Shown piece after piece: positions 5,771 through 32,971 of a stretch of DNA of 41,154 nucleotides; the stretch's first letter is position 1, and each line of letters begins with the position of its first letter. The stretch is from a virus. The position numbers and the translations under genes are program-made. Where the stretch lies: the IMG/VR virus record IMGVR_UViG_3300031541_000022, positions 1-41,154 of that record; one strand, 5' to 3'. A model generated the notes under the pieces. The model worked only from the letters and a program-made list of their open reading frames with translations. It was not told where the DNA came from and ran no database searches.

Positions 5771-6664
5771 ATGGCCAGGAAGAAATCCACAAAATACTTA
5801 AACAACAAAGATATGTTAAAGGAAATCCATGCAAGCAAGATGAGTTTCTGTTATGCACTGGATGATCAATCCAAACAATTTGATATTATTGTAGACAGCG
5901 TCGAAGAAATTACACCAGACATTGTCCAGCAAGCGAAAGAAAACAAAGCGTCGAGACTCAGTTCATTAGGATACGAACGTGGCATTGACCACTGGTATGA
6001 CACAGACGGCAGTCGTAACACAAAACCCAAGCAGGCTGACTTTCGTGTAGACCCAAACAGCATCTCAGATGAAGACGTGGTATTCCGCGTTATGACATAT
6101 GGTCATATTCCTGAGACGCCTGGAAGAAAAAAGAATCCAAAAACTGAAGCAGACCGCCATACCCGTCTCAACTTCCCACCGTTTAAGCACTATGCGTTTA
6201 TCAACGGTGAGTTGCGCGAAGTTCTTCGCAGCCATTGGGAAGGCGGACTTGATAATGGTCACTTCCGTATGGATCATGGTAGCCTAACACCTGAATTGGC
6301 TCGCATGATGATGAAGTTGGTGGAGCGATACGGCATGCGCGGCAACTGGCGTGGCTACACATACAATGATGAGATGCAATCTGCCGCCTTGCTACAATTA
6401 AGTGAAGTAGGCTTGAAGTTCAACGAGGCTCGCAGCCAGAACCCATTTGCCTACTACACTGCAACAATTACCAATAGCTTTACTCGTGTGCTCAATCTCG
6501 AAAAGCGTAACCAAAACATCCGTGACGACATGTTACAGGATGGTGGTTACATGCCAAGCTTTAACCGTCAGCTAGACGACGAAGCAGCGCAGCAACGAGC
6601 ACGTGAAGAAGATGAAGAAAAGAAACAACAGGAACTCAGAGATGCAGGGTATAACACCATCTAG
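5771..6664 (+). CDS. gp55: late-transcription sigma factor (T4 gp55-like)
   Basis: NWRGYTYNDEM, KFNEARSQNPFAYYT...NSF..L..EKR; T4-like synteny with gp47 and gp46. Confidence 0.9.
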   Translation: MARKKSTKYLNNKDMLKEIHASKMSFCYALDDQSKQFDIIVDSVEEITPDIVQQAKENKASRLSSLGYERGIDHWYDTDGSRNTKPKQADFRVDPNSISDEDVVFRVMTYGHIPETPGRKKNPKTEADRHTRLNFPPFKHYAFINGELREVLRSHWEGGLDNGHFRMDHGSLTPELARMMMKLVERYGMRGNWRGYTYNDEMQSAALLQLSEVGLKFNEARSQNPFAYYTATITNSFTRVLNLEKRNQNIRDDMLQDGGYMPSFNRQLDDEAAQQRAREEDEEKKQQELRDAGYNTI

Positions 6665-10264: not shown

Positions 10265-10538
10265 AGACAACTATGACTATACCAAAAAATGGGTTCACAA
10301 CGAGTGGCCGAAAGAACGCGGCCCAGATATATCAGACAGTGAATACGAAGAAATTACAAAGCTTGTGGAAGAAATCCGTCACGGAAACGAAAAAATTGAT
10401 TGGGTTAATAGAATTAACCAAAATACTGGAACTGTACAAGTTACAACAAACGAAGACTATGATGAAGAAAGAGATGAGGTAGAACCTGACGAGACTGTTG
10501 GTCCTCTTCTCGCTGAAATTTTTAATAGTGACATCTAA
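10254..10538 (+). CDS. hypothetical protein
   Basis: 94-aa ORF with GGAG RBS, coupled to the upstream gene. Confidence 0.6.
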   Translation: MIYKDNYDYTKKWVHNEWPKERGPDISDSEYEEITKLVEEIRHGNEKIDWVNRINQNTGTVQVTTNEDYDEERDEVEPDETVGPLLAEIFNSDI

Positions 10539-10599
10539 AAGCAAGGCAAAAGGCAGCTCATGGGAACGTGATGTTGCCAAGTATTTGACAGAAACTTAA
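10528..10599 (+). pseudogene. N-terminal remnant of an Hjc-type Holliday junction resolvase
   Basis: GTG-start (M)TSKSKAKGSSWERDVAKYLTET then TAA; matches the K.KG...ER..A..L N-terminus of Hjc-like resolvases; no continuation found. Confidence 0.65.
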
Positions 10600-10620
10600 A
10601 TATTTGTATGTTCCGCATCT

Positions 10621-10628
10621 TATAAATA
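10621..10628 (+). promoter_or_regulatory. late promoter
   Basis: Perfect TATAAATA upstream of GGAG RBS and ATG at 10652. Confidence 0.75.
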
Positions 10629-10651
10629 GATGCAATAAATGGAGTATACAT

Positions 10652-11551
10652 ATGGGAGAATATGGACACTGGCAATATCCAGGAGACATTAATGTTAACG
10701 ATTGGTTTGGGTTCGTTTATCGTATTGTAGAATTAGATACTGGTCGTGAATATATTGGGAAAAAACAATTCCATTCACATACTCGGAAAAAAGTTGCAGG
10801 TCGCAAAAACCGTAAACGTGTTATTAAAGAAAGTGATTGGAAAACATATACTGGTTCATCTAAATCATTAAATGAACGTATGAATGAAATAGGGAAAGAT
10901 AAATATTCCTTTTTCATTGAGTCACTGCATGAAACTCGGGGAAGCTTGTTTTATGCTGAAGTTGAAAAACAAATCAAAGAAAATGTTCTACGAGAAAAAT
11001 TAGATGACGGCACACCAAAATATTACAATCGGTTAATAGCAGGCGTAAAATTTACACCACCTGAGTCAACAGAAATTGAAGACTGCGCCAATATAGAAAA
11101 CTACATTCTTATTGAGCCATTCAAATCTAATCATGATGTTTTTCTTGGTGAAGATAATCCAATGTATGGTAAACAAGACGTTAAAAATGGTTTAACATAT
11201 GAGCAATATTATGGTCCTGTACGGGCTGAAGAAATTAAAAAGAAACTAGCAGAATGTAATGAAGGGAAAATTAGCCAACATAGAGGAATAAACATCCATT
11301 CTGAAGAACAGATTAAAAAATGGAAGAATGATGATCGACGAAAATTCACTGGACCAAAAAATGGTATGTATGGTAAACCATGTCATTATAAAATGACTGA
11401 AGATGAAAAAGAACGTTGGAAGGGAAATATAAGTGCTGCCACTAAAGGAAAACCTAAAGAACAGGTAACTTGCCCACATTGTGGGAAACAAGGCGGGAAA
11501 CCGCCTATGATGCGATTTCATTTCGACAACTGTAAACAAAAGAACCATTGA
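10652..11551 (+). CDS. GIY-YIG (Seg-like) endonuclease with NUMOD3-like repeats and C-terminal zinc ribbon
   Basis: GFVYRIVELDTGREYIGKK, SDWKTYTGSS; GEDNPMYGK and GPKNGMYGK; CPHCGK...HFDNCK; AT-rich. Confidence 0.85.
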   Translation: MGEYGHWQYPGDINVNDWFGFVYRIVELDTGREYIGKKQFHSHTRKKVAGRKNRKRVIKESDWKTYTGSSKSLNERMNEIGKDKYSFFIESLHETRGSLFYAEVEKQIKENVLREKLDDGTPKYYNRLIAGVKFTPPESTEIEDCANIENYILIEPFKSNHDVFLGEDNPMYGKQDVKNGLTYEQYYGPVRAEEIKKKLAECNEGKISQHRGINIHSEEQIKKWKNDDRRKFTGPKNGMYGKPCHYKMTEDEKERWKGNISAATKGKPKEQVTCPHCGKQGGKPPMMRFHFDNCKQKNH

Positions 11552-11985
11552 GCTTGAGGTTCTAAAACTGCAAGCTTCCTAGCGGCTACAATAGGCTATC
11601 CTAAGACCACCTCAGAACCCTGACTATAGCGGCTCTATTCGAGCCTTGAGTTTGTGTAACCCATTGGTTGTACCGACGGATCTGGCATGCCGCAGTCTAT
11701 ACGCACTCATCCTGACAAATGAGAAATGAGCAGGCTCTACTGACCAATTGTAACCTGCAGACAGCGTTCGTGTTATCGTAACAGCACGGCGTGGTTCCGC
11801 GTTGAGAGTAGAAAGTAAAAGGGTATCGCTCAACCGCCCTTCCCTGGCTATACAAGGTTTTTCTGTTACGGTGTGGCTCGTCTTGACGAGTTGGCGACGG
11901 TAAACGTCACATAAGCCATAACCATACTTGGCCGCGGACAGGCTAAGTGTGGTTATTGGACTCTGGTAAATGCCAAATAGTTCAA
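11551..11985 (+). ncRNA. large structured non-coding RNA of unrecognised class with multiple predicted pseudoknots
   Basis: No credible ORF; more GC-rich than the adjacent gene; dense stems including a 16-bp stem 11918-11933/11941-11956; wobble pairs are G-U on the + strand; three loop-to-distal pairings. Confidence 0.7.
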
Positions 11986-12035
11986 ATGATTTGTTTCCAA
12001 CCGCTTTTAAACAACATATTGATTAGAATAAAAAA

Positions 12036-12106
12036 CGTTATGAGCATGATGAGTCGAACGAAGTGGAGACGAATGATGCGAAATAACGATGGTTCGAAGA
12101 ACCATC
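12036..12106 (+). other. tandem ssDNA-type hairpins with C(GAA)G triloops and GA/GA mismatches (candidate origin or primosome-loading signal)
   Basis: CGTTAT..ATAACG long hairpin with three GA/GA steps, then perfect GATGGTTC-GAA-GAACCATC. Confidence 0.55.
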
Positions 12107-12156: not shown

Positions 12157-12408
12157 TTATCGGAATTCCTGGCGTGGTGATTGTGGTCCTTGAGGACCAT
12201 TCATTTCCCCTGCAACCATCTTCTGTGATACCTTGTTAGGGTTCTGCTTTTCGGCCCTTTCTCGTAAAACTTCACCCAGGATGCGGCGTTCTCTATTGGT
12301 CATGTTCATGACATTCTCGTATGGTACATCGCTATAGACACTGAGGCGCATAACGTCTCTGATCAGTTCATCTCCGATTTTGTTGTAGCGATCTACCAAC
12401 TCCTTCAC
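12157..12408 (-). CDS. gp51: gp51-like baseplate hub/tail assembly protein, probably the -1 frameshift extension of the upstream gene
   Basis: YENVMNMTNRERRI motif typical of gp51/T-like chaperone tails; frame open back to the slippery site at 12453-12444. Confidence 0.65.
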   Translation of the reverse strand: MKELVDRYNKIGDELIRDVMRLSVYSDVPYENVMNMTNRERRILGEVLRERAEKQNPNKVSQKMVAGEMNGPQGPQSPRQEFR

Positions 12409-12425
12409 CTCCTGATAATCAGTGG

Positions 12426-13268
12426 TTAAAGCGAGCTGGTTCCGAAAAAATTTGCGGGATCAAATGTCACCTCCACAGAGAAATCATGTGAGCACTGTGG
12501 GCAGACAATCTTCATGTTACGATCTACACATTCCGTACTGAGCTCTTGTACTGCATCACGGATCTTTTGATATTCAGGTGCGGTGAGTTCAACCAGCCAT
12601 TCGTTGATAAATTTTGGATCGTCAACTATTTCGCCTTCAGGTGTTTCCACACTGACGATATGATTACTTGCAACTTCGAAGATCAATTCACTGCCGCGCT
12701 TCATCATTTCAGCAAGCTGTTTTTGATGCTCTTCCTTTTCAGTCACCGCTGCCAATTCAAACTGTCTAGCTGCACGAGCAATCTGTACCTGAAATTGGCT
12801 GAGGATTGTAGATGATTCAGCAGTGTGCGGTCTCAATTTAACTTTGAGATCACCAATTGTGATTTCATCTGGTGCCGTAATTTGTGTTGCATTAGCCAGA
12901 ACGTTGGTTAGGTTGATCTGATATTCCTCATCATGACCACACTTGGGACACTTGGCACCCACGTCCATGGTATCGCCATATGTTGCAATACGCATACCAA
13001 CAATGATGATATCAAAGTCTGGTGTGGGTATTTCACTGGCACGTTCAATTCCAGGTGCAATATGTTCCAAGACTTGGAAGATGCCATCGCTGTTCATAAG
13101 CCCGTCTGGGTTTTTGATTTTGAGTTCATCGCCCGCAGTCATGGGGCGAATTTCCAATTCACCATCTGCGCTCAAACGTGGTCGAGTTTTATAAAATCTG
13201 CCGCCGCTGGGCAATGTAACATAGGTCCCAGGACGTTCACTGTACTTTTTAAGTGGATTGTCTGTCAT
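12426..13268 (-). CDS. gp26: gp26-like baseplate hub assembly / tail chaperone
   Basis: YVTLPSGG, IRPMTAGDE, two CxxC pairs (CPKC, CPQC), ends ..NFF.. Confidence 0.8.
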   Translation of the reverse strand: MTDNPLKKYSERPGTYVTLPSGGRFYKTRPRLSADGELEIRPMTAGDELKIKNPDGLMNSDGIFQVLEHIAPGIERASEIPTPDFDIIIVGMRIATYGDTMDVGAKCPKCGHDEEYQINLTNVLANATQITAPDEITIGDLKVKLRPHTAESSTILSQFQVQIARAARQFELAAVTEKEEHQKQLAEMMKRGSELIFEVASNHIVSVETPEGEIVDDPKFINEWLVELTAPEYQKIRDAVQELSTECVDRNMKIVCPQCSHDFSVEVTFDPANFFGTSSL

Positions 13269-15723: not shown

Positions 15724-16257
15724 ATGGAATACTACGTCTACATCTATCTTGAGAACGATTCACCATATTATGTTGGTATGGGTAAAGATCGTCGTTACAA
15801 ACAACCGCATAAGTATGTAAACGTACCGCGCGATTGGAATAATATTTGGATGATTCGAGGATTAACCCAAGATGAAGCGTGGAATATTGAAGAAATATTA
15901 GTAGATAGTATTGGTATGCAAATTGAAAACAAAGGACCATTGCTTAATCTACAACGTGGTGGTAAACCAGTACCAGGTGGATGGCACCACGCACCAGAAA
16001 CAAAGAAACGTATTTCTGAAAAACTTCGTGGTGTTTTAAAAACAGAAGAACATAAATTAAATATGTGTAAACCCAATACAAAAGAACACAATGAAAAAAT
16101 ACGTTTGGCTAACCTTGGACGTAAGGATGATGGCCGTAATATTAAGATAGGTAAAACCATGTCTAAGAAACGCTGGTACAATGATGGATCAATAACTAAA
16201 ATGTATGAGCCAGGAGATGAACCAAAAGGCTTTAAGCCTGGAAGAAAGGTAACATAA
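15724..16257 (+). CDS. free-standing GIY-YIG homing endonuclease with NUMOD3
   Basis: YYVYIY....PYYVGMGK; HAPETKKRISEKLRG; AT-rich; between the tape measure and portal genes. Confidence 0.8.
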   Translation: MEYYVYIYLENDSPYYVGMGKDRRYKQPHKYVNVPRDWNNIWMIRGLTQDEAWNIEEILVDSIGMQIENKGPLLNLQRGGKPVPGGWHHAPETKKRISEKLRGVLKTEEHKLNMCKPNTKEHNEKIRLANLGRKDDGRNIKIGKTMSKKRWYNDGSITKMYEPGDEPKGFKPGRKVT

Positions 16258-25769: not shown

Positions 25770-26182
25770 TCAACAATTGTTTTGATTTTGCTCAAAATCC
25801 TAGGATTTTGCAAAACTAACTTCGCGCCTGGATGAAGAGGGACTGGATAACGGTCGTAATTTACCCAGGCGTATCCTTCACTTTCACCATTTATTTGCGG
25901 CGTAAATTCATGCGGCACAGTTGCAAGAAATGTGTCGTATTCAAACGATTCGTCATTGCTCACCATTTTATGTAGTGGATAAAACTTAGTGATTTCTGGC
26001 AGGAAGCCTAGCTCTTCTGTGAGCTCACGCTCAATAGTTTGTACAGGCAGTTCATCGTTTTCACTGCCGCCTCCCCAGAATCCCCAATAGTTTTTGCGTT
26101 TGCGGTCAGGGGTTCTTAGTTGTAAAAGTATTCGCTTGGTGTCCTCACTGAGGAGTATACACCCGCTAGCTTTTATTGTCAT
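25745..26182 (-). CDS. NUDIX hydrolase
   Basis: Nudix box GGGSENDELPVQTIERELTEELG. Confidence 0.9.
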   Translation of the reverse strand: MTIKASGCILLSEDTKRILLQLRTPDRKRKNYWGFWGGGSENDELPVQTIERELTEELGFLPEITKFYPLHKMVSNDESFEYDTFLATVPHEFTPQINGESEGYAWVNYDRYPVPLHPGAKLVLQNPRILSKIKTIVDQLDSPAG

Positions 26183-28091
26183 CACAAATCCATTCCCATT
26201 CTATTTTCCCACTGTCCCATATTTTTAATGCGCCAAGCTCTTTAGTTGCTTGTGATTCAGTCATACCATTGTCAATTGCTTCGGCAAGATGCGGGAATTT
26301 CTTTTTAATATTTGATTTCATAAATTGTTGTTTATGAAATGCAAAACCATTTAAAACATAAAAATAATTTGGATTATGAGTTTTTATATAGTTAAAATTA
26401 TTTTTATTATACACATCGCCAGTAAACCATCGATTGTCTGAAAATGAAATAACCCTTTTAAATCCTATATCGCGCTGCGCATATTTGAATACTTTACTAA
26501 ACAACCCAGGAAAATTGGTGTTCGGGATAGTAACCCACCTTTTAAGTTCAAATCTTCGATTTTCTTTCGATCCTCTTGTCCATCCAAAAATCATCGCTCC
26601 AACCAACAAGTTATCATGATTGTATGCTGCATACGAATGAGTACCAGTAGCATGTCCTTGTAGGTGATGGGTATCAAATAAATTTTTGACATCTGACATG
26701 TTAACTTTTTTTATTGTACATTTTCGTGCACCATACGTGTTAGTTATTTTAGAAAATTTTGATTTTAATAAATTTTGAAATATCTCTTTTTTATTGTGCC
26801 AGTCAGCTTCTCCAATGGATATTAAGTGAATATTCGCATCGTTACATGCTTTCCATTTTTGATAATGATAATGTCGGTCTTTAAATATATCACTGTGCCA
26901 ATAGTCACCATTACATTCGATACCGAGATTCATCGATGGAATATAGAAATCAATTTCATATGGTTTGATACTTTGACGGTCATTTTTGATATATTTAATA
27001 TTATTTGAATCCAAAAAGACAGCCAATTGCAATTCAAAAGAACTGTGATCTTTAATAATATTAATTTTATCTTTACAGTTAAATGCAATGATTTTATTAT
27101 AAACAGTGCTAGTATTAACTCCTAACGATGATGCTATATCTAAAATCTTCTTATTATTACAATAAGAAACAAACTTATCCTTGTCTGTCAGAATAGGGAT
27201 ATTATTATGATTGATATGATGATATTGAATATTTTTTACACCATATTTTTCGACCATTGTATTGGATCTACGGTCTTTGGTTTCCTGTAAATTCATTTTG
27301 TTTTTGTGTTTGTTTTTAATGTTATTACAGTCCATAACATTTTTAACCCCATATTTTTCAATATTAGTTTTTTCAGCCTTAGCTCTATTAGAGTAAGTTT
27401 CATCATTATATTTTTGTTTTTTAGATTTTTTTGTCTTTGTAGAAATTAATTCTGAATTATGAAAAAAACCGTCATATTTGTCAATAAAGGTCTGTTTTGT
27501 TTTCTTTTTGATATCATCATTTTGGGATGGGTAGCTGCATCCATATTTCTTTAAATTTGTTTGAATGGCTTTTTCTTGATTAGTGTAAAACTCATTGTCA
27601 TATTTTTGTTTTTTTGTATTTCTTGATTTAGATTGTGACTCAACTGATCCGCCAGCATTCTCAACACCATATTTTTTTAAATTTGTTTCAGTAATTTTTT
27701 TACGAACTTCAGAATTTCCCCAAGGATTTTCAGAACCATATCTTTCTAAATTAGTTTTTTTTCTTTTTTCAGAACCCTTCTTAATAAAAGATTCATAATC
27801 GCCATATCTTGATAATATAGTGGATTTTGTCTTATTGATAGTATTTGGATCAGATGATGAACATTTTTTTGAACAAAACTTTCCATAATAAGATCTTTGC
27901 CATTTAGTATCGTTGTTACAATCAGGATGATTGCATTTAGGTATTGTGTGAATTTTGTGATATAAATGCCAGACAATTTGTCTGGCTGATGCAGTATCAA
28001 TAATATCTTGTGGTAATACTGATGTATCGATATCAGCAATTTCACTCATACGTATAGAACGTTTATGGTATAAATTATATAATAGCGTCAT
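26166..28091 (-). CDS. Hef-like free-standing endonuclease: KYG repeats, Vsr/PD-(D/E)XK domain, GNAT/Mom-like C-terminus
   Basis: Repeated TN..KYG; PYEIDFYIP..NLGIECNGDYWHS; very AT-rich; ATG at 28091 follows ATAAATA-N5. Confidence 0.8.
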   Translation of the reverse strand: MTLLYNLYHKRSIRMSEIADIDTSVLPQDIIDTASARQIVWHLYHKIHTIPKCNHPDCNNDTKWQRSYYGKFCSKKCSSSDPNTINKTKSTILSRYGDYESFIKKGSEKRKKTNLERYGSENPWGNSEVRKKITETNLKKYGVENAGGSVESQSKSRNTKKQKYDNEFYTNQEKAIQTNLKKYGCSYPSQNDDIKKKTKQTFIDKYDGFFHNSELISTKTKKSKKQKYNDETYSNRAKAEKTNIEKYGVKNVMDCNNIKNKHKNKMNLQETKDRRSNTMVEKYGVKNIQYHHINHNNIPILTDKDKFVSYCNNKKILDIASSLGVNTSTVYNKIIAFNCKDKINIIKDHSSFELQLAVFLDSNNIKYIKNDRQSIKPYEIDFYIPSMNLGIECNGDYWHSDIFKDRHYHYQKWKACNDANIHLISIGEADWHNKKEIFQNLLKSKFSKITNTYGARKCTIKKVNMSDVKNLFDTHHLQGHATGTHSYAAYNHDNLLVGAMIFGWTRGSKENRRFELKRWVTIPNTNFPGLFSKVFKYAQRDIGFKRVISFSDNRWFTGDVYNKNNFNYIKTHNPNYFYVLNGFAFHKQQFMKSNIKKKFPHLAEAIDNGMTESQATKELGALKIWDSGKIEWEWICDDNKS

Positions 28092-28102
28092 GTAGTTATT
28101 TA

Positions 28103-29461
28103 TTAAATATACAAGCGCCACCATCCTTCTCTGTATGTTCCTTCATAGCTGTCTTGCCAAACTTCGCCAGTCCATTCAAATTGCTTACTGCTAGCTAGGT
28201 TGGTAACATAGTCTGGTCCAGCATTTGCACTTGCATCAAAACTCACAACCCAAGCTGATCCGTTATATTGGATGATGTCATTGGCGTTTGCACTAACGGC
28301 GCCCCAAGGACCTGCAGGCTGATCAGAAATATCATCAAGTATAAGATACCTCTGTCCATTTGTTGCCGCTGGTAACTGTCCATCACCAGGATAGTTAACC
28401 TGTGGATTGATAATTGCATCCACGTTGCCTTGTGTGTCGCTTGCAAGTGTATCAGTATCAATTACAACATTCAATCTCTGTGGATTGTTAAGGTCATAAC
28501 TGATTGTACCAATTACATCGTTCTCAGGGTCTGTAACGTCATTGCCTTGTCGCAATCTTATCTGGCTGATGCCCTCACGTAGCTCGCCATATGCTGCAAA
28601 TACGTCGTCTTTCCAGCTTATTACACTGCCGTCACCACCTTGATCTTCTCCTCCACGTTCAAGCAATAGCGCACTGCCATTCTCGAATCTAATCCAATAG
28701 TCCTCAAGTGTAGTAACAACAAAACTTGAATCTGGTCCTGTCAGGGTATCAACAGTCCAGGTTTCAAACTCCTCTAAGTTTAGCGGATGAACTTGTGTAA
28801 GGATTGTTTGAATGATATTCATACGTTGCACACGAACAGGTGGGTTGATATAGATAGGCATCTGGAAAGTCAGTGTTGCGATATCAATAACAGTGTCCGC
28901 ACCGCTTGGCAGTGTTCTGCTTGACCAGCTGGTGTTGGTCAATTCACAATATGCTAGCGCAGTCCAATCTAATACATTTGTGTTCGTATGCAAGTTGACG
29001 CCTGGATTGAATAGTACGAGAATTTGTTCAAGCAACTGGAGTTTTTGATCCGTGTTACTGGTCCAGACGTCAACATTCATTGTGAGCATATAAGGCACAG
29101 GCTGGTAACGTGTTACGTCATAGCTCTGTCCAGGATCCTCAGTGTAGCGATGTTCTGATTCATCAAAAGCCTTCTCGATGACTTTGAGTGTTTCTTCAAA
29201 TTGCGGATAACGACGCAAGTCAGGATTCATATCAAGGCTGTTAATGTAACAACTGATAAACGGCACGGCGTTTAGTGTGTTCTCACTATTGTCCTTGAGA
29301 ATGTGGTTAACTTGTCTTGACGCGTCGCCGTAGCGAGCAGGCACTTTTTCATAGACAGGATTTCCTTGTTCATCCCATCCTTTTTGTACTGTGAAGTTAC
29401 CAAACATGCGAATGAATTGTAACAAATATCGGCGAATAGATTCATCATAGAAATATTGCAT
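28103..29461 (-). CDS. gp15: tail terminator / sheath stabiliser with C-terminal extension
   Basis: YFYDESIRRY, VP..YG, PVPY.L...VDVWT.N..QKLQLLEQILVLFNP. Confidence 0.88.
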   Translation of the reverse strand: MQYFYDESIRRYLLQFIRMFGNFTVQKGWDEQGNPVYEKVPARYGDASRQVNHILKDNSENTLNAVPFISCYINSLDMNPDLRRYPQFEETLKVIEKAFDESEHRYTEDPGQSYDVTRYQPVPYMLTMNVDVWTSNTDQKLQLLEQILVLFNPGVNLHTNTNVLDWTALAYCELTNTSWSSRTLPSGADTVIDIATLTFQMPIYINPPVRVQRMNIIQTILTQVHPLNLEEFETWTVDTLTGPDSSFVVTTLEDYWIRFENGSALLLERGGEDQGGDGSVISWKDDVFAAYGELREGISQIRLRQGNDVTDPENDVIGTISYDLNNPQRLNVVIDTDTLASDTQGNVDAIINPQVNYPGDGQLPAATNGQRYLILDDISDQPAGPWGAVSANANDIIQYNGSAWVVSFDASANAGPDYVTNLASSKQFEWTGEVWQDSYEGTYREGWWRLYI

Positions 29462-30464: not shown

Positions 30465-31520
30465 TTATTCTTCTAGGCCTGTATCACCATCATAGTCTGG
30501 GCGTGGTAGAATTGCATCAGTAATTGACTGACGGCTGTCATATTCACCAGTTGAATTAACATCAGTAGCTTGATCATTAATAAATGTGCTGCCATTGAAT
30601 GTTCTGTCGCTCCAAGTGTCCTGTGCAATTTCGTCATATCGTCTAACCCAACGGCTTTCATGGTATTGAAAAAGACGGTTGGGTTGAAAGTCGCTACGAA
30701 TGAAAAAATCTCCTTGGTTTGGATTGCTTGGAAACGCATTGCCAATTGCTACATTACTACCTGTAAAGAATGGATCTTCTGTATCTTCAATATAATTATA
30801 CAAATGCGAGGTTAGTTGTGTCGGGCCACCCAATGGGTCTTCCTGGAATGCGCTTTCAACAACAGAATCACGAATATCGATTTCAGCTGCATATGTACTA
30901 ATAATATTACCCAGGCTACCCTTTTCTTCACTGCTACCTAAGATATCATCAAATTCCTGGCTGTCTGTGATTGGTTCTAATTTACAACGCCAAATATGAG
31001 GCCACCATGTTGAACTAAACCCCTCCCCACCACGATTACCATCGCTCACGGTGTAAAACTTGGGTATTGGCGGTGTATCTGCATCTAAACCATATTCTTC
31101 AATCAAATGTGGTAATTCAATTACATCTCCACTCATTAATTTGCGCCCTAGTATTTCTGTCATTTCATTAAGGTGAAATGTCATGTATAATGTATCATTA
31201 GTTAGAAACAGGCCGAATTGGGTCAAGTCGAAATCATTATCACTTACATTATAAATGCCCCGTAATTCATATAGATCTTTGTCGTATTTGCGATCTCTGT
31301 TTTCAAGTAGCAGTAAATCTTGAATAGTTGTCTCATTGATTACATCATCGTTTTGATAATCTGGACGAGAAGGATCCACCAAGTTTGGATTTTCTTCTGG
31401 TCCTAAATATTTGTGCACAATAGCACCAGTACCACCAACATGGAATTGTTCGCGAATTATTCTATCATGAAATTTGTAATCATTGGTCTTCTTAGGAGAC
31501 CACATTGATAATCTTGACAT
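30465..31520 (-). CDS. gp14: neck / head completion protein
   Basis: DLTQFGLFLTNDTLYMTFH, GDVIELPHL; gp13-gp14-gp15 neighbourhood. Confidence 0.8.
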   Translation of the reverse strand: MSRLSMWSPKKTNDYKFHDRIIREQFHVGGTGAIVHKYLGPEENPNLVDPSRPDYQNDDVINETTIQDLLLLENRDRKYDKDLYELRGIYNVSDNDFDLTQFGLFLTNDTLYMTFHLNEMTEILGRKLMSGDVIELPHLIEEYGLDADTPPIPKFYTVSDGNRGGEGFSSTWWPHIWRCKLEPITDSQEFDDILGSSEEKGSLGNIISTYAAEIDIRDSVVESAFQEDPLGGPTQLTSHLYNYIEDTEDPFFTGSNVAIGNAFPSNPNQGDFFIRSDFQPNRLFQYHESRWVRRYDEIAQDTWSDRTFNGSTFINDQATDVNSTGEYDSRQSITDAILPRPDYDGDTGLEE

Positions 31521-31549
31521 TTTTGATCTTTCATATTATAAGTATATTT

Positions 31550-32971
31550 ATGGATATTTCTGACAGATTAAAGCAATTTCATACTAGCAAGACAGGTGCT
31601 GTGAAATTTAAAACATTGCCTGAAGAATATCATGCAGATATTATTGCTGCTACATCAGAATACAAATCTTATCATGATGGTCATATAAAAATACGAGCTT
31701 GGATTCTTGTCAATGATAAGGATATTCCGAAATGTGAAAAATGTAATAAAACATTTTATCCAAAATCACAATGGGAATGGAAGCGTGAAGTTAGGTTTTG
31801 TAGCAAAAAATGTGCTAATTCATCAGATGCAACCCGTACAAAATTTAAACAAACTATGCTTGAACGTTATGGTGTAGATAATCCAAGAAAAAGTCCAGAA
31901 ATTATTAAGACCGCTAGAAAACGCAATTTATGTGAATATGGTGTAATGAACACCAGGTTACCAAATGAAGTAACTAAGATTCTAGAATCTAAAGATTTAT
32001 TAGATGAACAGCTTGGAATATATTCGGTTCCACAATTAGCTGAGAAGCTGAATGTTGATATGACTACAATTTACAAATATGCAAATCAATATGATATTGT
32101 TCCATATAGATTTGATGGATTTGAACAGAATGTTATCAACATTTTAAAAGATATGAATGTTAGTTATACAAGAAATTCTAGAAAAATTATTAAACCATTG
32201 GAAATTGATATATTTCTGCCAGAACATAATATTGCAATCGAATGCAACGGCGATTATTGGCATTCACATGAAAAATTACAAGACAAATTATATCATTATA
32301 CCAAATGGAAAATGTGTAATGATCGCGGTATTCATTTGATTCAAATATTTGAAAGTGATTGGAATAAACATCAAGATAAATTTGAAGCAATGATCTTAAG
32401 TCTTATTGGATTGAAAGATGATGGAACTCCTGCTAGAAAATGTTTGATAACTCGAATTGATGCTAAAATTGCTAGGCCTTTTGTTGATGAATATCATCTG
32501 CAAAATTTTGTTGGCGGAACACATTTCGGAGCGTTCGATAATGAAAACAAGTTAGTTGGTGTGATGACCTTTGGATATACACGTGGGTCAAAAGAATCAC
32601 GTCGATTTGAACTTAAACGCTGGGTAACAGATAATAAGACACATCCTGGATTATTCAGTAAAACGTTTAAGTTTGCACAACAAGAAATGAATTTTCACGA
32701 AGTTGTGTCATTTTCAATGAATGATTGGTTTACAGGTGACGTTTATGAAAAATGTGGATTCTCAAAAGGTCGCGTTCTAATGCCAGGATACTCATATTTA
32801 TTTAAAAATCAAAGAACACATCTTTCAAATTTCACAAAAGCAAATATTAAAAAGAAATTTCCTGACATATTTAATGAATCATTGACAGAGAGGGAAATGA
32901 TGGAAAAGTTAGGAATACCTAAAATTTATGATTCAGGAAAAATTGAATGGATTTGGTCTATTCATAAATGA
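31550..32971 (+). CDS. Hef-like free-standing endonuclease, paralog of 26166-28091
   Basis: FCSKKC, ERYGV, PLEIDIFLPE.NIAIECNGDYWHS, FGYTRGSKESRRFELKRWVT; AT-rich. Confidence 0.8.
   Translation: MDISDRLKQFHTSKTGAVKFKTLPEEYHADIIAATSEYKSYHDGHIKIRAWILVNDKDIPKCEKCNKTFYPKSQWEWKREVRFCSKKCANSSDATRTKFKQTMLERYGVDNPRKSPEIIKTARKRNLCEYGVMNTRLPNEVTKILESKDLLDEQLGIYSVPQLAEKLNVDMTTIYKYANQYDIVPYRFDGFEQNVINILKDMNVSYTRNSRKIIKPLEIDIFLPEHNIAIECNGDYWHSHEKLQDKLYHYTKWKMCNDRGIHLIQIFESDWNKHQDKFEAMILSLIGLKDDGTPARKCLITRIDAKIARPFVDEYHLQNFVGGTHFGAFDNENKLVGVMTFGYTRGSKESRRFELKRWVTDNKTHPGLFSKTFKFAQQEMNFHEVVSFSMNDWFTGDVYEKCGFSKGRVLMPGYSYLFKNQRTHLSNFTKANIKKKFPDIFNESLTEREMMEKLGIPKIYDSGKIEWIWSIHK

Follow-up and report, generated by a model that had tools for sequence, protein, structure and literature searches.

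The window, that is, the whole stretch of DNA analysed (41,154 nt, positions 1 to 41,154 of the IMG/VR record IMGVR_UViG_3300031541_000022), belongs to a T4-like jumbo phage whose 110-kb record is 30% complete. The nearest relatives of its baseplate hub gene are found in phages Phosso, Atu_ph07, GAP32, and PA5oct. The locus considered here contains, in this order, the genes of a late sigma factor, gp47 and gp46, a resolvase stub, a SegE-like GIY-YIG endonuclease gene, a gap of 605 nt, a small convergent gene, and gp26 (Table 1). The order of the small gene and gp26 is kept across related loci. The late sigma factor (5771-6664) has 297 amino acids; the T4 gp55-type profile covers residues 171-277 only, leaving a long N-terminal part unexplained. 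Three further genes resembling homing endonucleases are located at 15724-16257, 26166-28124, and 31505-32971, one of them immediately upstream of the portal gene.

Table 1. Coordinates of the features of the locus, in positions of the window.
Feature	Coordinates	Strand	Remarks
Holliday-junction-resolvase stub of the PD-(D/E)xK type	10528..10599	+	23 codons; truncated where the endonuclease gene begins
T4-type late promoter motif (presumed)	10621-10628		upstream of the GIY-YIG gene; read from sequence
SegE-like GIY-YIG endonuclease gene	10652..11551	+	PF19835, E 8e-36; neighbour, not a required part
Optional 5' hairpin	11551..11576	+	compensatory changes in 3/6 closest relatives
5' module, exchangeable	11622..11723	+	stems 11629-33/11689-93 and 11643-45/11684-86; hairpins 11654-73 and 11706-23
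Hairpin of two stems with internal loop	11730..11758	+	11730-34/11754-58 100% paired, 11738-40/11750-52 99% paired (40 sequences)
Double-pseudoknot core	11760..11870	+	covariation, 40 sequences
Direct repeat, copy X1	11899..11904	+	5' of the terminal hairpin
Terminal hairpin	11918..11956	+	many G-U pairs; 97.5% paired over 12 pairs; no U-tract behind
Direct repeat, copy X2	11965..11970	+	likely 3' end of the RNA (one data point, PA5oct ncRNA004)
AT-rich spacer	11975..12045	.	mean AT 0.66-0.68 vs 0.52-0.57 inside the RNA (114-locus set)
GAA-triloop mini-hairpins, DNA-type	12058..12106	+	12058-64 and 8-bp 12088-12106; predicted single-strand signal
Small conserved gene and gp26-like baseplate hub gene, convergent	12157..13268	-	phrog_150, PF12322; syntenic marker

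When the genome was searched by tblastn with the intact resolvase of a related locus (L348, PF24608), the only match was to residues 1-23. A stub cut at a near-identical codon and followed by an extended GIY-YIG gene is seen in the window (10528-11551) and in L001, L009, L011, and L012. The motif between the two genes is read as a late promoter of the T4 type. The gene upstream of the gap is GIY-YIG in 82 of 98 loci, the resolvase in 10, neither in five, and both in the window alone. The two families are mutually exclusive at this site, and the complete genome G001 has GIY-YIG and no resolvase, which suggests that the nuclease has taken the place of the resolvase. Inversions are common in the region, which makes it a hotspot of rearrangement; they affect the flanking genes (gp46-gp47 or resolvase) of L001, L006, L008, L010, GAP32, PA5oct, and Phosso.

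The gap had been called exceptional in length for so tightly packed a genome by an earlier, sequence-only reading. It is not unique, as the same genome has a 1150-nt gap at 93232-94381, which contains no long ORFs and, by HMM, no copy of the element described below.

Fold of the RNA

Comparison of related loci indicates that the gap encodes a real RNA: large, of plus-strand sense, pseudoknotted, non-coding, and with a conserved fold of about 420 bases. Homologues were collected by an endonuclease search (80 loci) and by short patterns (120, 23, 107, and 22 stretches). After removal of redundancy the class of the window comprised 49 loci, of which 39 were aligned with it (n=40); the other 10 were near-duplicates or poorly anchored. 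Alignment columns that the search pattern prescribes cannot vary. Outside the pattern, positions 11799-11803 are invariant in all 40 sequences.

The corrected structure is 92.2% paired and has compensatory changes in 35 of 55 pairs, so that the covariation proposed as a check on the RNA was indeed found. None of 500 shuffles reaches this value, and controls slid along the alignment are 38-45% paired. When mutual information was scanned unsupervised over all 50 sequences, the same helices ranked first, the top two covarying pairs lying in the hairpin at 11730..11758. The plus strand, originally deduced from G-U pairs in the hand-paired stems, is borne out by 272 G-U cells against 23 A-C cells. 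Comparison with shuffled sequences, another check proposed, is weak as proof of an RNA: the plus strand has z = -1.52, with 9 of 100 shuffles folding equally well, and the minus strand does better (z = -2.49).

All 14 pairings listed in the sequence-only reading can be formed in the window. The hairpin 11730-34/11754-58 (compensatory changes in four of its five pairs), the hairpin 11819-24/11836-41 (98% paired), the 16-bp stem 11918-33/11941-56 (90%), and the pseudoknot 11777-84/11863-70 (90%, compensatory in 8/8 pairs) are conserved. The hairpin 11769-72/11785-88, which is 66% paired in the alignment and compensatory in 4/4 pairs, caps a longer covarying stem. The six closest relatives have 12, 13, and 11 double changes in the hairpins 11654-73, 11706-23, and 11877-90, respectively, and the hairpin 11551-76 is kept in three of them. 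The hairpin 11956-85 is uncertain. Two of the three pseudoknots proposed are retained on the basis of covariation. The second of these, 11801-06/11829-34, is reduced to four pairs, 11801-04/11831-34 (100% paired), its two extra pairs being formed in 34%. The third, 11736-41/11807-12, is abandoned: it is 68% paired, has one compensatory cell, and one of its pairs is broken in 32 of 40 sequences. Its place is taken by the local stem 11738-40/11750-52 (31 compensatory cells) and the stem 11811-15/11859-63. Likewise, the hairpin 11631-45 is broken in all six relatives and is replaced by the two stems of the 5' module, and the hairpin 11896-908 is intact in only one of the six.

The resulting core consists of a stem, 11760-97, whose loop pairs with 11864-70, a single strand, 11801-04, pairing with 11831-34, and a three-way junction formed by 11811-15/11859-63, 11819-24/11836-41, and 11843-45/11855-57.

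The functional unit goes past the coordinates first given (11551-11985) and reaches about 12106. A direct repeat of 6-7 bases, X1 and X2, brackets the last hairpin. In an alignment-free test, the longest word shared by X1 and X2 is 7.0 within a locus and 5.3 between loci (105 of 114 loci scored), and this holds within each class; the two copies change together. The reverse complement of X has no consistent position within 1.5 kb in 98 loci. Pairing of X inside the RNA was considered and rejected, as there is no consistent partner.

Downstream of the AT-rich spacer, six relatives have 20 double changes in the hairpin 12088-12106 and form no G-T pair in it; it is one of two such hairpins in the 110-kb genome. 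The GNA mini-hairpin motif occurs in 91 of 107 loci on the RNA-sense strand and in 43 of 107 on the opposite one, the values for shuffled sequences and for an upstream control being 15% and 17/100. Long GNA-triloop hairpins occur just downstream of the RNA at 0.35 and 0.12 per locus per 50 nt, compared with about 0.01 elsewhere. Hairpins of the GNA type are described as less stable in RNA and much more stable in DNA, and as present at the primase-dependent priming sites of G4, St-1, alpha3, and RSF1010 ssiA (PMC13037366).

Family members and likely homologues in cultured phages

The covariance model of the core matches a second, larger class at E-values from 1e-20 to 1e-3. One core pseudoknot is present in 60 of 64 loci of this class, with 11 different sequence pairs. 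A third, diverged class occupies the same site in L007, L012, L013, and L207. The same pseudoknot signature is kept in L007, L012, and L013, with 5-6 pairs (6 pairs are reached by 1-6% of shuffles); L012 has a long AT-rich insertion. With the core model, 10 larger IMG/VR records, including the complete G001 and the 99%-complete G003, gave one copy each, and an eleventh, the complete G007, gave none. One carrier, G009 (87227-87462), is classed as a provirus by IMG/VR. For one sub-pattern of the RNA, about 1,200 IMG/VR stretches are estimated.

In L002, L003, and L235 the same core is directly preceded by the Rfam motif Polynucleobacter-1 (RF01718); in L235 the match scores 90.6 bits and lies 14 nt upstream of the core. 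The 5' module is thus exchangeable, with Polynucleobacter-1 in its place in other members. The window itself does not match the Polynucleobacter-1 model (more than 37 bits needed), even to E 10.

In bacterial genomes of GTDB, seven of 85 pattern matches are true, six of them on bin contigs beside phage genes and one on a contig of 1.7 kb. No match was observed in 72,556 plasmids with queries from the GAP32 class and the main class. A blastn search of cultured phages with the RNA of the window gave chance matches only, and none of the related loci sought by gp26 patterns was confirmed.

Phage GAP32 has a gap of 805 nt at the syntenic site. Elements of the GAP32 form were found in 72 cultured records, at 4-5 places each in the 60 records listed. 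GAP32 itself has five copies, at 35, 99, 177, 261, and 341 kb, all on the plus strand; every copy has a TG-extended sigma-70-type promoter, a pseudoknot, and a twin repeat. They carry 2-3 mini-hairpins each on the plus strand and none on the minus strand. The twin repeat is altered in both positions in the GAP32-form copies L397, L398, L399, L401, and L402. In the GAP32 copies L380, L383, L387, and L396 a small conserved sub-hairpin is inserted at differing points, and it is missing from one copy; modules are shuffled among the GAP32 paralogues. Co-oriented copies are also present in BF, Munch, and EJP2 (five each), and in Sharanji (four). The spacing of the Rak2-like copies is even, the probability of so small a largest gap being 0.0008-0.02; these genomes are related and do not count as independent.

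Three copies are present in PA5oct, at 12.9, 75.9, and 246.1 kb; they are not evenly spaced (P 0.5), and in two of the three the mini-hairpin lies on the opposite strand. The 246.1-kb copy coincides with the published ncRNA004 (246116-246734, plus strand), which accounts for 0.08, 0.03, and 0.02% of phage reads, and whose published 3' end coincides with the final base of its X2, a single data point (PMC7318152). Another published RNA of this phage, ncRNA003 (103065-103368, L408), is separate, GC-richer, and lacks the signature.

The covariance model and HMMs of the class of the window do not match the GAP32 or PA5oct copies, and thus the evidence on copy number and transcription transfers to the window only via synteny and a descriptor of the fold. 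The descriptor recovers all five GAP32 copies among eight plus-strand matches (controls 1 and 0), two of three PA5oct copies, and the RNA of the window; it was written after the GAP32 and PA5oct copies had been seen, missed the copy in G001, and has 4-10 background matches in own-genome controls. Judging from synteny, architecture, and the descriptor, these copies are very probably homologous to the RNA of the window.

At the syntenic site of Phosso, RsoM2USA, XacN1, and Xoo-sp13 there are gaps, each present as a single copy and linked to the RNA by position only. In Phosso the 1-kb structured gap (L202 6843-8244) adjoins an RNase HI gene; this is only a lead, as the kinship of the gap to the RNA is positional. 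A comparable gap is lacking at the site in Atu_ph07 and SCTP-2.

Candidate functions

The reading we favour is that the RNA is the pre-primer of an RNA-primed (R-loop) origin of replication resembling that of ColE1 RNA II. We give this reading slightly less than even confidence. We infer the following mechanistic steps. The folded RNA would stay hybridised close to its 3' end; the last hairpin would pull X2 off the template, and X1 would pair with the template DNA of X2. The 3' end of the RNA could then prime leading-strand synthesis, while the displaced RNA-sense strand would fold the mini-hairpins, which might load primase or helicase. ColE1 provides a precedent: a folded RNA of 550 nt, a persistent hybrid, and a helicase loaded on the displaced strand (PMC5043065).

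Several observations point in this direction. The mini-hairpin cassette is conserved outside the transcript, it is independent of the neighbouring genes in 98 loci, and the likely homologues of Rak2-like phages are co-oriented, spaced, and promoter-bearing. As the promoter and the downstream DNA are duplicated together with the RNA, the unit is a DNA locus. Joint change of X1 and X2 with no complementary partner is expected of RNA-DNA pairing in cis; twin protein sites would fit equally. Taken together, the low-abundance early RNA, long and folded, with its promoter and no U-tract at its 3' end, and behind it the AT-rich stretch and the displaced-strand hairpins, all duplicated as co-oriented, spaced units, suggest the anatomy of an RNA-primed origin.

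On the other hand, GC skew at four-fold-degenerate sites does not differ between the two strands of GAP32, PA5oct, G001, and the genome of the window, and reveals no replication bias. The skew at third positions shows no switch at the RNA, such as a bidirectional theta origin would require, and the third-position bias of GAP32 vanishes at four-fold sites. Recombination-dependent replication, which is dominant in T4 (PMC7824862), could erase strand bias. The single copy in each of the 10 environmental records and the lack of one in G007 also argue against an origin, and most Rak2-like genes lie on the same strand as the copies. RNase HI (PF00075) was found in two of five genomes; the RNase H-like gp325 of PA5oct, mentioned in PMC7318152, was not found by PF00075. 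There is no sigma-70 promoter directly upstream of the RNA in the window. One promoter-like site on its minus strand, a candidate for an antisense RNA, is at chance level (4 found, 5.7 expected).

A stronger version of the origin reading is a self-guided initiator. The core and the terminal hairpin would hand X1 to the template strand of X2, the origin being opened and primed through programmable RNA-DNA pairing with no initiator protein, and several cassettes along a 350-kb chromosome would form a multi-origin system. We consider this version unlikely.

Somewhat unlikely, in our view, is an early RNA acting in trans by binding a protein of the phage or the host, as a decoy, regulator, or RNP scaffold, with X1 and X2 as sites of a dimeric protein and the copies raising the dosage. 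The co-changing twin sites fit co-evolution with a protein as well, the exchangeable 5' modules suggest a scaffold, the GAP32 copies have their own promoters, and there is no strand skew. However, this explanation accounts neither for DNA-type hairpins outside the transcript nor for even spacing, and 0.02-0.08% of phage reads is little for such a role when ncRNA001 and ncRNA002 of PA5oct make up 1-5% (PMC7318152).

A self-cleaving, ligating, or self-processing ribozyme, with the pseudoknot core as the active site and the repeats as reaction sites, appears improbable. The compact double pseudoknot and the invariant 11799-11803 would suit it. However, Rfam ribozyme and intron models do not match, even to E 10; no gene is interrupted, close relatives have an intact resolvase upstream, and the 110-kb, 30%-complete record contains no second exon. 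The order of helices, which we take to differ from group I and HDV-type folds, was also counted against it. Of the functions initially suggested (primer, ribozyme, or scaffold), the primer is the best fit, and scaffold and ribozyme are poorer ones.

The element could also be wholly a structure of single-stranded DNA, such as a priming, recombination, or packaging signal, with transcription incidental. The downstream mini-hairpins are DNA-like, and comparative methods separate ssDNA from RNA unreliably (PMC5737381), but the core has 272 G-U cells where the downstream hairpin has no G-T pair, and the likely homologues have dedicated promoters and a discrete transcript, making this very improbable. 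Least probable of all is a guide or cofactor RNA of the upstream nuclease: 83 of 98 loci have a GIY-YIG gene at most 1.5 kb upstream, on the same strand in all 60 checked, but in five of the six closest relatives its place is taken by an intact resolvase and in one by another gene, the family is missing from GAP32, PA5oct, and Phosso, and no variable guide-like segment was seen. As the upstream gene varies in this way, the RNA is not an intron, nor is it tied to the nuclease as an obligate partner.

If the primer reading is true, the replication start sites of giant T4-like phages are identified, and the cassette gives exact coordinates of candidate origins in cultured phages, among them Sharanji, which grows on E. 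coli K-12. The twin repeat allows RNA-DNA pairing to be told genetically from protein binding. Whatever the function, this is a widespread class of RNA with a new double-pseudoknot core. The orphan motif Polynucleobacter-1 is explained as a module of a larger RNA, and ncRNA004 of PA5oct gains a structure via its likely homology.

Comparison with known systems

The earlier statement that the RNA belongs to no recognised class holds for the window, which matches no Rfam family at the gathering threshold or to E 10. It does not hold for all relatives, since Polynucleobacter-1 forms the 5' module of some and ncRNA004 is a likely homologue. Thus the class is large and undescribed in its whole form, one module and one likely homologous transcript having been catalogued with no function assigned. 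A literature search, with subscription journals outside its scope, found no description of the whole RNA or of the cassette. In keyword searches of PMC5259590, PMC7824862, and PMC6892783 (CBB, MIJ3, and a jumbo-phage review) no replication origin was named for this group of phages. Candidates listed in Fremin 2023 are 29-151 nt long (PMC10690425), and fragments of the RNA may be among them.

Like ROOL, GOLLD, and other large ornate RNAs, the element is large, multi-junction, pseudoknotted, and associated with mobile elements; the ARRPOF, GEBRO, and PAGEV motifs are linked to plasmid-replication regions (PMC5737381). Unlike them, it has no Rfam match and no tRNA in the window (ARAGORN, 0 genes), and its likely homologue is of low abundance. 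ROOL, GOLLD, OLE, HEARO, RNase P, tmRNA, group I, and group II models have no match to E 10 in the window, nor were these classes found in scans of 32 related loci. A likeness to RNase P, seen in short motifs, was rejected as it has no Rfam support.

Group I introns with homing endonucleases are known from td, nrdB, and nrdD of T4. The locus resembles them in having a GIY-YIG gene beside a folded RNA and after a truncated gene. However, an intron around the endonuclease was rejected: there is no second exon in the 110-kb, 30%-complete record, the RNA follows intact resolvase genes in relatives, and no Rfam intron model matches.

The Rfam model of Polynucleobacter-1, the only part of the element listed in Weinberg 2010 (PMC2864571), is 141 nt long and covers none of the core, the repeats, or the downstream DNA; the 5' module of the window is different. 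PA5oct ncRNA004 (Lood 2020, PMC7318152) overlaps a paralogue of the syntenic-gap element and has the same pseudoknot signature and repeat-hairpin-repeat end. It differs in being longer and in having no profile match to the class of the window; that paper lists it as transcribed, giving neither structure nor function.

The closest parallel is ColE1 RNA II. Both are folded non-coding RNAs of several hundred nucleotides with a host-type promoter (here in the GAP32 and PA5oct copies, with none directly upstream in the window) and with a single-strand signal, here a predicted one, immediately behind the RNA on the displaced strand (seen in 91 of 107 loci, five of five GAP32 copies, one of three PA5oct copies). 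Unlike RNA II, the GAP32-class and main-class RNAs have no plasmid sequence match, and no antisense RNA was found; the phage RNA has a double-pseudoknot core, a twin repeat at the terminal hairpin, and up to five chromosomal copies, and its priming is proposed by analogy. Most likely, the RNA would work like ColE1 RNA II but stand outside that family.
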